From Candidatus Hermodarchaeota archaeon (GTDB taxonomy: Archaea > Asgardarchaeota > Lokiarchaeia > Sigyniarchaeales > SOKP01), in assembly GCA_048885535.1 (NCBI GenBank), contig JBHLLO010000015.1:1-52382 (forward strand): a DNA stretch of 52,382 nt, given 5' to 3'. The notes under the pieces are model-generated. The model ran no database searches. It saw nothing but the letters and a program-made list of their open reading frames with translations, and was not told the origin of the DNA. Every line of letters starts with the position of its first letter. Positions within the stretch are counted from its first letter, which is position 1. A program made the position numbers and the translations under genes. Shown one piece after another: positions 1,237 through 30,632 of this stretch.

Positions 1237-4200
1237 TTATTTTTGCTCATTTCCACATTTTGGGCAAATTCGAGCATCAGCATCAATCATAAATCCACAA
1301 TATAAACATTTTATGGGTTTTGCGAATTCTTCTTTTTCAGTAGGCTTCTTTTCAATAATAATTACTTCACGTTGCACTATCACTGGAGTAGTAGGTGGTA
1401 TTTTTTGATACTTTTTTTCTTCTTCTTGTTTTAATGCCCTTCTTAAGTCCGATTTTGATGGTCTTTGGGGCTTAGGAGGCTTTGGAGGTTTAGGGGCTTT
1501 AGGAGGCTTTGGAGGGCGAGCTCTTCTCTTCCGTATTAGGAATAAAGCTAAAACAATCGACATTGCTGCGATAAATACTCCAATAGCAACACTTATTATG
1601 ATAATAATACTGAAATCAGGGGGTATATAAGGGGGAATAGATTTTTGAATAATTACCTCTTCGAACACTATATTACCTGCTTCATCTAGAGCATAAAATC
1701 TAATTGTAATAGCGCCAGAAGGAGCAGAATTCCATGCATCTGAATTTATATACCCTGTATATTGTGTTATGTAATAATTATTTACACCTCCATCAATAGT
1801 GTACCATACTACATCAAGATTAGCCTCTACTACAGAAATATTGAAAGCTGGAGGTATTGTTGTAAACTCATTACCGATTAAGGGTGAGTAAATTATAATT
1901 ACTGGATCAGTAATATCCTTGTTAATTGTGACATCCTCGTAACTTAAGCGTCCAAAGGAGTCATTTGCATAGAACCTGATTAAAATTAAGCCTTCCCCCA
2001 ATTTATCCCATTCTGTTTGGTTTATTATTCCTGTAGAACCAGTGAATGTAACATTATTATTGCCACTATCCATTGTATACCAACTAGCATTTAATGAATA
2101 ATCAGTTATATCAATATTAAAGGTAGGTGGATTTTCATTAAAGAAATCATTCATAACTGGGCTATTAATTGTAATAAGTGGAGCTGTTGTGTCTTTGATA
2201 ACAATGACTTCTTCTGAACTTTCACGTCCAAGAGTATCATTTGCATAAAATCGAATACTAACAGGACCATCCAATTGATTGTCCCATTCTGTTTGATTAA
2301 TTGAACCAATCAATCCGGTAAAATAATACTTATTTACTCCATTATCTAACGAATACCATGTCTGATTTAAATTTATATCAATTACTAAAATCTCAAAATC
2401 TGGTGCACCTAAACCTAAAATATCATTTGATTTCGGAGAATTAATAAAGATAACGGGTGGTAAAACATTTATTGAAAAATATCGTTTTATAGATTTATAA
2501 TTAGTTCCTAGAGTGTCATTTCCAAACACTTGAATATTATGTTGACCTTCAGTCGGAATTGGTATTGTAACATTTCCCATTATCGTCTTATTAGCTGATC
2601 CATCTAATGAATACCCTATCCAATCTAAGGTAGTACTATTCTCAGAACTTAGGAGTAAACCTTCATTTAAGTTATCACCTGTACTATAATAATTGTCTCC
2701 CGACCAACCTATTGCATCTATACAGAAAATACCTGATCGAAAGCTATTTGTCCATACTTTAATACGGTCAATATAACCTGAACCAGCATTCATATCTGTG
2801 TTAAGTAAAACCATATCATTATTTATTGTGAAATTTGCTTTACCCAAAGCACAATTAAAATCAAATTTGATATGAATCCATTCATTGTCATTATAGTATG
2901 CACCCGGCACAATTGTCCATCCACTAGAATAACGCCAACTCCACATTCCATCATTATCTGCATCTGCTTGTATTCCGACTTTAATAGAGTCACCTTCATG
3001 CAAACCTATATAACAAGCAGTACTTCCACTTTGTTTATAAAACCAAAATTCTAAATATCCTTTTGTTTGGGGAACAAGGTCACAAGCTCCTTGAGAAAAT
3101 GCAGTTGAACTATCCGGATCGTAAAGTTGAAGCACTTTATTATGTCCATCGTGCTGACTTTTAACGTCAACTAGGCATCCTCCCCCAGATGACTCATCTA
3201 TCCATCCTTTTGGAACACTTCCATCTTTATCATTCTCAAATCCATAAGAGGCAAGATAATAACCACTCATTGATTCTGTGTATGTTATGTTATCGGGGGT
3301 AAGTATTGAAATACTAATCCCTATAGTAAAATATATCATATTAGATGCATACATAGTTCCTAAAGTATTATTTCCAAACACTTGAATATTATGTTGGCCT
3401 TTACTCGGAATTGGTATTGTAACATTTCCCATTATCGTCTTATTAGCTAATCTGTCTAATGAATACCCTATCCAATCTAAGGTAGTACTATTCTCAAAAC
3501 TTAGGAGTAAACCTTCATTTAAGTTATCACCTGTACTATAATAATTGTCTCCCGACCAACCTATTGCATCTATACAGAAAATACCTGATCGAAAGCTATT
3601 TGTCCATACTTTAATACGGTCAATATAACCTGAACCAGCATTCATATCTGTGTTAAGTAAAACCATATCATTATTTATTGTGAAATTTGCTTTACCCAAA
3701 GCACAATTAAAATCAAATTTGATATGAATCCATTCATTGTCATTATAGTATGCACCCGGCACAATTGTCCATCCACTAGAATAACGCCAACTCCACATTC
3801 CATCATTATCTGCATCTGCTTGTATTCCGACTTTAATAGAGTCACCTTCATGCAAACCTATATAACAAGCAGTACTTCCACTTTGTTTATAAAACCAAAA
3901 TTCTAAATATCCTTTTATTTGGGGAACAAGGTCACAAGCTCCTTGAGAATATGAAGTTGAACTATCCGGATCGTAAAGTTGAAGCACTTTATTATGTCCA
4001 TCGTGCTGACCTTTAACATCAACTAGGCATCCTCCTCCATTTGACTCATCTACCCATCCTTTTGGAACACTTCCATCTTTATCATTCTCAAACCCATAAG
4101 AAGCAAGATAATAACCACTCATTGGTTCTGAATAAGTTGTGTTTTCAGGGGTAAGTACTATTATTTCATTAGCATTAGAATTGGGGAAATCATTTTTAGT

Positions 4201-16236: not shown

Positions 16237-16264
16237 CTTGTTAGAAATCATAAATTGATATATA

Positions 16265-16468
16265 ATGTCAACTACATCATTTCAAGATTCAAGAAAAAGA
16301 AATATCCTTCTCATAATTGTAGCTGCTGTAATTGTCATTTCTGCAATAACTTTTGTAATAATTTTATTAGTCTTCTACTATTCTCTTTCTTTCAATGGAG
16401 GGGGATGACCATGTGTGATAATAGTTCATTACACTGGAAAATTAATTCCGAATCTAATATGGGTATGA
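16265..16468 (+). CDS. Putative small single-pass membrane selenoprotein (67 aa; in-frame TGA = Sec48 in GGG-U-PC)
   Basis: MSTTSFQDSRKRNILLIIVAAVIVISAITFVIILLVFYYSLSFNGGG-TGA(16406-08)-PCVIIVHYTGKLIPNLIWV-TGA; post-TGA peptide is conserved, with synonymous changes, in the 17275 copy; SECIS-like element follows. Confidence 0.7.
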
Positions 16469-16515
16469 GTCTTGGGAGAAAATTGTAGTCTCAAGAGGAC
16501 CCACCCTGCAAGGGT
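16460..16515 (+). promoter_or_regulatory. SECIS-like element, copy 1
   Basis: TGGG-TAT-GA-G-TCTTGGGA-GAAAATTGTAG-TCTCAAGA-G-GA-CCCA: K-turn with AUGA/GA core, 8-bp helix, A-rich loop; followed by CCC-TGCAA-GGG hairpin. Confidence 0.72.
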
Positions 16516-16671
16516 AAAAGAAAAATGATATTTTTAAGAATTTCTTTTAAAACATAGTTCTAAAAAAACCGCGAATAATTAAGAAGAATTTTCATATAAA
16601 ATCACAAAATATTTATAAACTATCATATTGTTGATCAATCTTAACCTCTTATTAAAATAGGTGTTTTATTT

Positions 16672-17187
16672 ATGGAAAATAGAAAAATCTTATGTCTTAT
16701 AAGTGGAATCTTAACTCTTGTAGCAACATATCTTTTTGCTTGGTTTGCTGTTGATATAGCAGGTACTGATTATTATGGTCATGGTATAGGAGTGATTATG
16801 AGCCTTCCGAATACATTTACAAATGCAGAAACAATAGCTACTATTTGGGGCGTACCTACTTTCGCTATTTATATTGTAGGAGGATGCCTTATATTCTTTT
16901 TATTTTCAGGAATTATAATATTATTGGGATTAAAGTATCGCATATTTGCAATTATAGGGGCAATAATGCCTATCCTTATATCAATCGCTATTATCTCAGG
17001 TCCTTTTAATGCTCCTCCAAATCTTATAGATTATATATCACTATTTTCGAGTGAAACATTAGGAGGATTTCCTCTAAATCTAGCAATTGGACCATCAGGA
17101 TTCGGAGCTTCTGTATCTCTAGGTAATTATTTATTACTTGGAGGAGGAATTTTAGGTATCATTAGTGGATTTCTACCTAAAGAGTAA
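16672..17187 (+). CDS. Multi-pass membrane protein of unknown function
   Basis: 171 aa with about four hydrophobic, Gly-rich helices; GGTG upstream. Confidence 0.8.
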   Translation: MENRKILCLISGILTLVATYLFAWFAVDIAGTDYYGHGIGVIMSLPNTFTNAETIATIWGVPTFAIYIVGGCLIFFLFSGIIILLGLKYRIFAIIGAIMPILISIAIISGPFNAPPNLIDYISLFSSETLGGFPLNLAIGPSGFGASVSLGNYLLLGGGILGIISGFLPKE

Positions 17188-17200
17188 GAATATATATAAA

Positions 17201-17346
17201 GTGGGAAATTGTAAGAAAAGAAATAAATAATCTTAATTTTTTTTACTCTAAACACCTTACTTGATAATACTAATGGAGGAGGACGACCATGTGCATCAAT
17301 AATGCATTATACTGGAAGATTGATAGCAATTTTAATAAGGATATGA
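17201..17346 (+). pseudogene. Decayed paralog of the 16265 ORF (TGA replaced by CGA; TM region largely lost)
   Basis: GTG-GNCKKRNK-stop, then in another frame NGGG-R-PCASIMHYTGRLIAILIRI-TGA, colinear with copy 1. Confidence 0.7.
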
Positions 17347-17392
17347 GTCTTGGGACTTAATTTTAATCTCAAGAGGATCCACCTAATAGAGG
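17338..17392 (+). promoter_or_regulatory. SECIS-like element, copy 2 (loop degenerate)
   Basis: AGGA-TAT-GA-G-TCTTGGGA-CTTAATTTTAA-TCTCAAGA-G-GA-TCCA-CCT-AATAG-AGG; compensatory G-C to A-T pair next to the bulge. Confidence 0.6.
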
Positions 17393-17519
17393 CAAAAGAA
17401 AAATAATACGTTTAAGAATATCTTTTATAGTATGCTTGATTATTATTCTTATTAACAAAACTCTTTTAAATCCTTAAAACCTCTTAAATTAAATCATTTT
17501 GTTAAATGGTGAAAAATTC

Positions 17520-28804: not shown

Positions 28805-28993
28805 ATGAGCAAAGGAAGAAATTCTCTATTTATATTGATAATCATCTTCAGTATTCCTACATTTATTATTTGGCCCTACGTTAATGCCTATTCAGCATGA
28901 GGGCAACCAATGACATTTTTCGATATGATCTATGGTGCGTTATGTATTATTGACGCTTTTTTACTAGTGATGTACGCTCTTCAGAGCAGGTAA
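28805..28993 (+). CDS. Putative small two-TM membrane selenoprotein (62 aa; in-frame TGA = Sec32)
   Basis: MSKGRNSLFILIIIFSIPTFIIWPYVNAYSA-TGA(28898-28900)-GQPMTFFDMIYGALCIIDAFLLVMYALQSR-TAA-TGA; SECIS-like element starts 10 nt after the stop. Confidence 0.65.
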
Positions 28994-29003
28994 TGAATAA
29001 TAT

Positions 29004-29063
29004 ATAAGCCGAAAATGCCTATGAGGAAATGCTAGTCATAGGATGATTATCCCCGCAAGGGAT
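29004..29063 (+). promoter_or_regulatory. SECIS-like element, copy 3
   Basis: ATAA-GCC-GA-AAATG-CCTATGA-GGAAATGCTAG-TCATAGG-AT-GA-TTAT-CCC-CGCAA-GGG: same loop consensus, 3' spacing and trailing hairpin as copy 1, with different stem sequence. Confidence 0.65.
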
Positions 29064-29246
29064 TCGGAGATTATTTTTAAAATGTAGAACCAAGAAACAA
29101 AGAATTATGCCATGGATTTAGGGGATTTAAGTATTCAACATTTTCTATATTTTCTTTTAAAGCTATTAATCCTATTCTCCTTTAATAAGTAGAATTGTAT
29201 AAAAATTAATAAACGACTTTAAAAATTAACCTTCTCTAATAATTTA

Positions 29247-30632
29247 GTGAAGAAGTATATGAAAATAAAATCAAAAATATTAATCTCATTAATAACCCTA
29301 GGGATTGTACTTTCACCTTTCATTTCAGGGTATATGAATCTGAACGTAGAACCTATTTCTCAAAATTCAAAATCTAACTATGATAACTTTATTGGTTATA
29401 ACTTTTTGAAAGTCTCAGCAACTTCGGGGAAAATTCATATTAACAATAACTGGACAGCTACAGAGAGCGCTGGAATATGTACAGGAAATGGTTCTTATAT
29501 CGATCCTTATATTATAGAAGATATAATAATTGATGGTGGAGACTCAGGAAGTTGTATATTAATTGAAAATTCCAGAGTTTTCTTTAAAATAGAAAACTGT
29601 ACACTTTATCATTCTGGAGAAACCTATTACAATGTTGGAATCACATTGTCTAATGTCACTAATTCCCAATTAATAAATAACAATGTTTCATTAAACAATG
29701 ATGCTATAAAGTTATATAATAGTCATTATAATTATATTTCGGGCAATATTATAACTGATAACGGCTTTGGTATAATATTAGAGGAAAGTAGTAATAATTT
29801 CTTCTTAGGAAATACAGCTAATAATAATAGTGTGGGAATATATATAGAAAATGGTTATAATTGTACCATTTTGGGAAATTCAATAAACAATAATTCTAGA
29901 TATGGGATTTATTTAAGATGGAGTAATTACAACATTGTTTCAGAGAATACTGTAAATAATAATTCTATTTTTGGGATTTATTTTAGAGAAAGTTATTATG
30001 ATAACATTTCAAGAAATACCGCTAATTACAATATTATATACGGGATTTATCTAAGAGGGTGTTACTATGATTTAATTACAGAGAATACTGCAAATTACAA
30101 TTCAGAACATGGTATATTCTTAGAAAATAGTGTTAGTAGCGAAATTACAGGAAATATAGCAAACTACAACTCTTTTTGGGGAATAGGGGTTTCTTCTGGC
30201 AATAATAATAGCTTTCAAGAAAATTACGCTTATAACAACGATATAGGATTATATTTACAATTTCAGAATACCAATAATATTTCACAGAACTATGCAAATA
30301 ATAATCATAGATATGGGATGCATTTTTTCTTTAGTGATTCAAACGTAATCTCAGGAAATATTGCCAATATCAATAGATATGGGATTTTTTTACAAAGGAG
30401 TGATAATAATATTGTATCAGGAAATACTCTAATAGGAAATATTGAATGCATCTTTGAAGACGAATGTCAAAGAAATTATTTTAGTGATAATGGGGCTTGT
30501 AACTATGGTGAAGGCGAAGAAGGTGGAAATCCTGTCGAAATTTTTATTTATATTTTGAATATTGGTATAGTAGTATTAACAAGTGTAATAATTATCATTT
30601 TCTTTATCTCTAAAAAAAAAAAAATTACATAA
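29247..30632 (+). CDS. NosD/pectin-lyase-like parallel beta-helix surface protein with C-terminal TM anchor
   Basis: Repeated N..GIYL..S..N.I..N units; signal peptide; C-terminal TM followed by KKKK. Confidence 0.88.
   Translation: MKKYMKIKSKILISLITLGIVLSPFISGYMNLNVEPISQNSKSNYDNFIGYNFLKVSATSGKIHINNNWTATESAGICTGNGSYIDPYIIEDIIIDGGDSGSCILIENSRVFFKIENCTLYHSGETYYNVGITLSNVTNSQLINNNVSLNNDAIKLYNSHYNYISGNIITDNGFGIILEESSNNFFLGNTANNNSVGIYIENGYNCTILGNSINNNSRYGIYLRWSNYNIVSENTVNNNSIFGIYFRESYYDNISRNTANYNIIYGIYLRGCYYDLITENTANYNSEHGIFLENSVSSEITGNIANYNSFWGIGVSSGNNNSFQENYAYNNDIGLYLQFQNTNNISQNYANNNHRYGMHFFFSDSNVISGNIANINRYGIFLQRSDNNIVSGNTLIGNIECIFEDECQRNYFSDNGACNYGEGEEGGNPVEIFIYILNIGIVVLTSVIIIIFFISKKKKIT

Follow-up and report, generated by a model that had tools for sequence, protein, structure and literature searches.

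SELENOK and SELENOS make up the most widespread family of eukaryotic selenoproteins. According to the accessible part of PMC10650576, the family is defined by its architecture: a single N-terminal transmembrane (TM) helix is followed by a segment rich in glycine, proline and basic residues, selenocysteine (Sec) occupies the second or third position from the end, and the proteins adopt a type III topology with a cytosolic C-terminus. In Asgard archaea, selenoproteins of the families SelD, FrhA/VhuU, HdrA, FrhD/VhuD, Prx-like, AhpF-N-like and DsbA-like have been described (PMC11227280, PMC4989117, PMC13188914, PMC9723677, PMC11291895, main texts). The published selenoproteomes, as presented in the main texts, comprise seven families in Asgard archaea and eleven in all archaea, all of them found by homology to known families (PMC11227280, PMC13188914), and one of these papers reports no eukaryote-specific selenoprotein family in Asgard archaea. 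Sec insertion is linked to the lokiSECIS element, which the main text of PMC4989117 describes as an AUGA before a 9-bp stem, an 11-nt loop and a GA after the stem. The first loop nucleotides are mostly A and the last is G, usually preceded by A. The element adjoins or overlaps the end of the coding sequence, whose stop codon is often UGA (PMC4989117, main text).

Here, we describe a locus in a 52,382-nt stretch of DNA (hereafter the window), which is contig C15 of a 3.09-Mb Lokiarchaeial genome with 30% GC. Positions 16265-16468 (+) very probably represent a real, hitherto unannotated gene for a 67-residue membrane-anchored selenoprotein with its own Asgard-type SECIS. Like SELENOK/S, the predicted protein is small, has a single N-terminal TM helix and carries Gly next to a Sec in its C-terminal part. 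Its family is absent from the family lists in the main texts of PMC11227280, PMC4989117, PMC9723677, PMC11291895 and PMC13188914, the supplementary tables of which might list candidates, and in the literature on archaeal and Asgard (Promethearchaeota) selenoproteins we found no report of such a single-TM or selenoprotein K-like protein. Among archaeal selenoprotein candidates, it would be the first membrane-anchored micro-protein; it comes without a Cys form.

Gene layout and reading frame

The coding sequence (16265-16468, +; 67 codons plus stop) was delimited from the window sequence together with its orthologues. It starts with the ATG at 16265, and the first 13 residues (16265-16303) are polar and contain the basic triplet R-K-R at residues 10-12. 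This segment is predicted to be cytoplasmic from the K and R counts of 27 orthologues. A hydrophobic stretch of 26 residues follows (residues 14-39, 16304-16381), which was assigned as a TM helix by its Kyte-Doolittle score and by the AlphaFold2 helix, and then a short linker that closes in Gly-Gly-Gly (16397-16405; at least 90% conserved in alignment A2). Directly 3' of the glycine codons lies the in-frame TGA read as Sec, residue 48 (16406-16408), an invariant column. It is followed by the Pro-Cys codons (16409-16414) and 17 further codons for a hydrophobic tail, so that Pro-Cys and tail together span 16409-16465, in a frame that is open in all orthologues. The true stop is the TGA at 16466-16468, which overlaps the ATGA at 16465-16468 and thus lies within the AUGA core of the SECIS. 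Both this placement of the final stop and the order of elements from R-K-R to the 17-residue tail had been proposed in the initial annotation, and each of these elements could be located in the sequence.

Translation table 11 calls just a 47-residue open reading frame (ORF) at this locus. An overlapping ORF of 77 residues in another frame (16255-16488) was ruled out by the orthologue alignment and by the codon-position pattern: the entropies of the three codon positions upstream of Sec (1.08, 0.68 and 1.30) fit the micro-selenoprotein frame and not that of the 77-residue ORF.

We propose that the ribosome would read the UGA at 16406-16408 as Sec, directed by a lokiSECIS of type I that starts 59 nt downstream, and that translation would end at the UGA buried in the AUGA core. 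The product would be a 67-residue single-pass membrane protein with a basic N-terminus (predicted inside) and one TM helix, beyond which a short acidic, Gly-rich linker, Sec with Cys at +2 and a short hydrophobic tail would follow. We regard it as highly likely that Sec decoding at this TGA is real. The explanation as a whole, which combines SECIS-directed decoding, a single-pass 67-residue membrane selenoprotein and a Sec-only Lokiarchaeial family, appears likely as well, if slightly less so than the decoding step.

The SECIS element and the decoding machinery

The SECIS proper (16465-16499, +), delimited by covariance models and covariation, consists of AUGA, a 9-position stem, an 11-nt loop and GA. 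The ATGA (16465-16468) stands right before the stem, which is formed by one basal G-G position and eight standard base pairs and, together with the loop, occupies 16470-16496. The loop begins with G-A-A-A-A and closes with A-G; at the place where GA or AA is expected directly 3' of the stem, GA is found (16498-16499). Among the family loci, the loop is 11 nt long in 44 of 49 and closes with AG in 40 of 49. The stem-loop at 16465-16499 shows all lokiSECIS features printed in the main text of PMC4989117. A second short hairpin (16503-16515, +) lies 3' of the core, and such a hairpin is also present after the FrhD and hydrogenase SECIS elements.

A loose SECIS pattern scan returned 98 sites in the genome; the bare pattern is therefore common and proves little. 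Among these 98, full architecture is seen, for example, at the sites that immediately follow the three FrhD genes and the NiFeSe hydrogenase gene, and in two of the FrhD genes the stop codon is likewise part of the AUGA. Likeness to the SECIS elements of these accepted selenoprotein genes of the same organism was found in both directions. Covariance model R2 was built from 4 elements only (3 FrhD and 1 hydrogenase) of known selenoprotein genes of this genome. When it was run over the whole window with filters off, positions 16457-16523 ranked first with 37.0 bits and an E-value of 1.1e-7, which is a rough value as are all E-values of R1 and R2; five matches had E<=1. In the reverse direction, model R1, built from 27 SECIS elements of the micro-selenoprotein family, scored the element at 16465-16499 with 77 bits on the genome, the three FrhD elements with 49, 42 and 39 bits and the hydrogenase element with 36 bits. 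In this run, 150 of 3903 first-look candidates were scored, and at least 10 matches had E<=1. A scan of the window with Rfam and tRNA models gave no match.

The stem is also supported by covariation. In 27 aligned elements, 98% of the cells of the main stem are paired, and both sides have changed in six of the eight pairs. The covariation score is 0.310, compared with 0.158 +/- 0.013 for shuffled alignments (0 of 500 reach 0.310) and at most 0.135 for slid partners. The second hairpin (helix 2) is 81% paired in the same 27 elements and shows little covariation.

The host genome encodes components of the machinery for Sec decoding. It contains a tRNA-Sec (61 bits, above the Rfam cut-off), which ARAGORN calls as well, an adjoining SepSecS gene, a SelD gene whose single in-frame TGA stands in the H-G-U-S-C-K context expected of the active site, and a PSTK-like gene whose score lies below the curated cut-off. 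The three FrhD/FlpD genes contain one or two in-frame TGA codons each.

Two further SECIS-like sites in this genome, outside of the window, were noticed. One with full architecture (G000:C58:18162-18196, -) follows a frame of at least 170 codons with two adjacent in-frame TGA codons after Gly-Cys, and this frame could be another unlisted selenoprotein. The other one (G000:C34:23349-23414, +; R1, 40 bits) lies 31 nt past a small frame that is Cys-rich, resembles a zinc ribbon and is closed by TGA. Within the window, a SECIS-like element at 29004-29070 (+; 36 bits with R1, 28 bits and a rough E-value of 2.6e-5 with R2) has a 5' core that is not a clean AUGA. It is preceded by an ORF of 62 residues (28805-28993, +) with two hydrophobic segments and an in-frame TGA between them; this ORF is poorly conserved, with one weak TGA-containing match in 60 related genomes. 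The window also holds a 300-nt direct repeat with 93% identity (2470-2769 and 3322-3621) and five 68-nt tandem-like repeats (29888-30432).

Distribution of the family and conservation of the UGA codon

The read-through protein was matched in 32 of 36 other genomes of the genus, and 28 of the 29 genus loci that were fetched hold a family member; locus L041 was rejected as a TM-only match inside a long frame. One locus (L037) has no ATG start. In a search at the order level, a profile built from 27 members found matches in 38 of 41 genus genomes. When a wider profile was run against 400 genomes of the phylum, 95 of the 134 genomes from the taxonomic family matched at E<=0.001, including 37 of 41 from the window's genus and 45 of 54 from another genus. 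Genomes from a second family within the class matched as well (3 of 3). Beyond the class, the same 400 Asgard genomes gave just TM-only or Cys-rich matches. None of these (L164-L167 and L173) was counted as a member, as they are either TM-only matches or TM proteins with C-x3-C repeats. Three of them, L165-L167 from other Asgard classes, share the basic N-terminus and the TM helix with the family but have C-x3-C repeats where Gly-Sec would stand, and they match the profile weakly; they may be Cys-rich analogues and are not accepted as homologues.

The in-frame TGA is conserved throughout. In the 400 genomes, 77 of 84 profile matches at E<=1.1e-5 contain it; six of the seven TGA-less matches were inspected, and all six have a TGA just past the aligned stretch. 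At the aligned Sec column, TGA is present in 54 of 54 inspected member loci from several genera, a count that overstates independence, as the loci are related. The Sec codon is the sole invariant column in both alignments (A2 and A4). Orthologues ending in TAA or TAG at this column, or frameshifts downstream of it, would have spoken against the gene, and neither was seen: none of the 54 loci has TAA or TAG there, and the frame is open beyond the TGA. A SECIS-like element follows 43-125 nt after the UGA in 49 of 49 scanned loci. The family proteins are 45-112 residues long.

Not one of the 54 inspected loci has a Cys codon at the Sec column, and we found no Cys-containing homologue among 21 matches in 1.84 billion representative proteins or in the 400 Asgard genomes. 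Cys-containing homologues that align with Sec are usual, though not obligatory, for selenoprotein families. Their absence is unusual for such a family and counts against the selenoprotein reading. Judged by its sequences, the predicted micro-selenoprotein family is Sec-only and lies mainly within one Lokiarchaeial family.

In public protein sets, the family versions are cut at the TGA. A word-indexed search with the read-through protein against 5.8 billion protein clusters gave no match, and a HMMER search of the 1.84 billion representatives retrieved the 21 proteins mentioned above. Of these, twenty are ORFs with a length of 45-95 residues, which end at, or a few residues from, the position before Sec, 17 of them exactly at this position. 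Eight of the short versions were read, and all of them end in the Gly-rich linker just before the Sec position. The remaining match is a 1052-residue repeat protein aligned over a short stretch. Searches of Pfam and NCBIfam yielded no family match, just sub-threshold TM noise.

Membrane topology and the role of the selenol

The best 20-residue window of the TM segment has a Kyte-Doolittle mean of 3.35. AlphaFold2, run with a 27-row alignment, predicts a confident helix for residues 9-42 (pLDDT 81-90; mean pLDDT of the model 70), a loop at residues 43-49 that contains GGG-Sec, and a low-confidence helix at residues 50-66. In the 27 orthologues, K and R residues average 3.9 N-terminal to the TM helix; C-terminal to it, K and R average 0.9 and D and E 1.7, with acidic residues located within the linker. 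From the positive-inside rule alone, we favour an N-in/C-out topology, which would place Sec at the outer membrane face, with some reservation.

A U-x-C redox motif on a membrane anchor had been suggested for this protein. The motif is indeed common: in 49 loci, Cys is found at +2 relative to Sec in 29, at +4 in 12 and at +1 in 2. It is not universal, since Cys stands at -2 or -3 in two loci and is absent near Sec in four, and the redox role is an interpretation. A flexible segment that carries a Gly-flanked Sec and a Cys close to it is the hallmark of a redox-active selenenylsulfide. By this analogy, we tentatively consider the Gly-flanked selenol to be a redox-active Sec or Sec/Cys centre rather than to serve another role, an assignment that may well prove wrong. 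Such a centre would form a selenenylsulfide or, in members without Cys, an intermolecular Se-Se or Se-S bond. Because 4 of 49 members have no Cys near Sec, an intramolecular Sec-Cys couple is not a general mechanism, and these members would need an intermolecular partner.

With the same gene and the same decoding, Sec (together with Cys) could instead bind, sense or hand over a soft metal or metalloid such as Cu, Hg, Zn, Cd or Ni at the membrane. Motifs of the C-P-C type occur in membrane metal transporters and resemble U-P-C, and the varying position of Cys suits chelation as well as redox chemistry. The FeoB-associated Cys-rich membrane protein model (PF12669) describes a similar layout, in which a tiny N-terminal TM segment is followed by Gly/Cys-rich residues; 3 of 27 members match it, far below threshold (E 0.18), and to our knowledge this family has no Sec. 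No match to any family was significant, a metal-transport or resistance gene is never a conserved neighbour, and Sec would be the sole candidate ligand in the four members without Cys. We therefore consider a metal-binding role unlikely, though it is the alternative that survives best.

Translation beyond the UGA codon

In the 28 genus loci, the frame stays open for 11-19 codons past the TGA, up to a stop adjoining the SECIS. Open runs of this length are not rare by chance in DNA of 30% GC. Across the family (49 loci), the tail is 1-61 residues long; the upper value comes from locus L077 (G143:C55), which has no stop before the SECIS and whose frame runs through the element. We calculated dN/dS on both sides of the Sec codon, as proposed along with the initial annotation, pooled over 13 sister pairs. 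The ratio is 0.39 before Sec and 0.61 after it, a sign of weak constraint in the tail, and the codon-position entropies of the tail are almost flat (1.27, 1.08 and 1.32). By these measures the tail seems weakly constrained, and taken alone, its translation would be the weakest link of the proposal.

Three observations point to decoding of the UGA nevertheless. A Cys is retained 1-4 residues past the UGA in 43 of 49 loci, the SECIS would be purposeless unless the UGA is decoded, and all 28 genus loci keep UGA and AUGA 51-60 nt apart, although the length of the tail (11-19 residues) and the gap between stop and SECIS (-1 to 22 nt) both vary, trading off against each other. That the spacing from Sec codon to AUGA is steady while the true stop drifts hints at a spacing constraint in Asgard recoding. 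Short family forms stop one or two residues after Sec. These forms show that the TM helix, the Gly-rich linker and Sec, and not the tail, would constitute the functional core.

The same data bear on the view that the UGA is an ordinary stop, in which case the locus would encode a 47-residue TM peptide followed by an element that is a relic or otherwise used. The public gene calls all terminate at the UGA, and the weak constraint on the tail fits this view. However, the TGA is invariant in all 54 loci, whereas real stops vary: the true stops of 49 loci are TAA in 31, TGA in 15 and TAG in 3, and TGA closes 14.5% of the long frames genome-wide. Moreover, the SECIS has stayed intact and covarying, its distance from the UGA is fixed, the downstream Cys is retained, and there is no other UGA-containing gene upstream that the SECIS could serve. 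An ordinary stop is thus very unlikely, and Sec decoding remains the preferred reading.

Relationship to SELENOK and SELENOS

The resemblance to SELENOK/S had been put forward as one of architecture, with no claim of homology. The architectural part holds, whereas the Pfam models remain unmatched and the predicted topology is opposite. Examined feature by feature, the single N-terminal TM helix is the sole SELENOK/S characteristic seen in the sequence of the window protein. Instead of a Gly segment rich in Pro and positive charges, it has just 3-5 Gly in an acidic linker of about 8 residues, where the SELENOK/S segment is Pro-rich and basic. Its Sec is the 20th residue from the end, with 19 residues following. 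The likeness is closer in sister clades, in which one or two residues follow Sec, which thus is second or third from the end (G-U-C, G-U-G, G-U-G-G). The Lokiarchaeial proteins are predicted to be N-in/C-out, as opposed to type III with a cytosolic C-terminus, and no Cys forms of their family are known.

Common descent, with the family as an archaeal relative or forerunner of SELENOK/SELENOS, would agree with the shared layout (N-terminal single TM helix, Gly before Sec, Sec near the C-terminus), with the Sec position of the sister clades, which is the one given for SELENOK/S in the accessible part of PMC10650576, and with a host that is an Asgard archaeon with eukaryote-like SECIS elements. 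However, the Pfam models SelK_SelG and Selenoprotein_S gave no match at E<=10 for 27 members (among the best 25 of 29 families listed), and SelK_SelG scored above its cut-off in 0 of 41 related genomes, with noise matches that fall off the selenoprotein loci. The opposite predicted topology, the lack of a long disordered region rich in Gly, Pro and basic residues, the restriction of the family to one class among 400 Asgard genomes, and the ease with which short low-complexity proteins converge also speak against kinship, which we regard as quite improbable. Likewise, there is but a slim chance that TM-anchored micro-proteins with a Gly-flanked, near-C-terminal Sec existed in Asgard archaea as the antecedent of SELENOK/S or its closest surviving analogue. 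If true, the antecedent reading would contradict the published statement that Asgard archaea have no eukaryote-type selenoprotein family. The likeness turns the origin of SELENOK/S into a testable question. By analogy, the protein perhaps works like a tethered Sec arm, and we do not count it as a SELENOK/S member.

Gene neighbourhood and the second copy

In all 27 member loci of the genus, the selenoprotein gene directly precedes a TrmB-like gene and shares its strand. Of 55 loci that were fetched by way of their TrmB-like genes, just 16 gave a SECIS match. Both the TrmB-like gene and the FGGY gene are neighbours in this genus alone; in other genera, their place is taken by genes for an ARMT1-like phosphatase, a ParA/NUBPL NTPase, MFS transporters and PGK. 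No conserved neighbour hinting at function was found beyond the genus, and since the neighbours differ between genera, they were rejected as a functional clue.

The window contains a second, degraded copy (copy B, 17272-17346, +), identified by sequence comparison and by the gene order in relatives as a remnant of the 3' end of the gene, with GGG-CGA-Pro-Cys plus tail and without a start codon or TM segment. Its SECIS (17343-17401, +) is degraded and has lost the A-run from the loop; it scores 37.5 bits with R1 and 11.4 bits with R2 (E 0.62, a rough value). Positions 16394-16549 and 17272-17427 are 78% identical. The match starts at the Asn-Gly-Gly-Gly codons: 57 of 75 nt agree in the coding part and 30 of 35 in the SECIS, compared with 29 of 100 just upstream. 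The 25 codons comprise 11 identical, 5 synonymous and 9 non-synonymous ones, including the change from TGA to CGA. The synonymous and conservative codon pairs that had been listed earlier as a sign of translation past the TGA are present, but they are uninformative on this point because copy B, which has CGA at the TGA position and lacks both a start and a TM segment, is a pseudogene.

Five related genomes share the gene order FGGY kinase, 171-residue membrane protein, small selenoprotein gene, TrmB-like gene. As the intact gene of the relatives lies between the genes for the 171-residue and TrmB-like proteins, copy B is at the ancestral site, and by this comparison the intact gene of the window is a displaced duplicate upstream of the 171-residue gene. 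The latter (16672-17187, +), located between the intact gene and the remnant, encodes a multi-pass membrane protein that is 88-92% identical in the five relatives and has no Pfam match.

The conserved position upstream of the TrmB-like gene would suit a selenium-sensing leader, in which decoding or stalling at the UGA controls this gene, but such a role is most improbable, given that the neighbours are unrelated in other genera, that the 171-residue gene and the remnant separate the intact gene from the TrmB-like gene in the window, and that purifying selection acts on the peptide, whose TM helix is conserved.

Comparison with known systems

Homology-based surveys miss small selenoproteins, as this family shows. 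A SECIS-first scan of Asgard genomes would probably reveal more of them; the same genome has other orphan SECIS matches. The UGA-to-SECIS spacings of the family, which range naturally from 43 to 125 nt and stay within 51-60 nt in one genus, are also relevant to the minimal-distance rule that has been put forward for the eukaryote-like Asgard system.

Among the known systems, the decoding signal is closest to that of the Asgard lokiSECIS genes (FrhD/VhuD, VhuU/FrhA, HdrA and Prx-like). These share the 9-position stem, the 11-nt A-rich loop ending in AG, the AUGA and the GA, as well as the placement of the element, which abuts or overlaps a stop codon that is often UGA. The protein itself is unrelated to the known Asgard selenoproteins in that it is membrane-anchored and has neither a thioredoxin nor a hydrogenase fold. 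Animal thioredoxin reductase carries a C-terminal Gly-Cys-Sec-Gly redox tail. The predicted Lokiarchaeial protein resembles this tail in its Gly-flanked Sec, the adjacent Cys and the flexible terminal segment. In contrast to thioredoxin reductase, where it belongs to a flavoenzyme, the segment is anchored by a TM helix, and Sec precedes Cys at a spacing that varies within the family.
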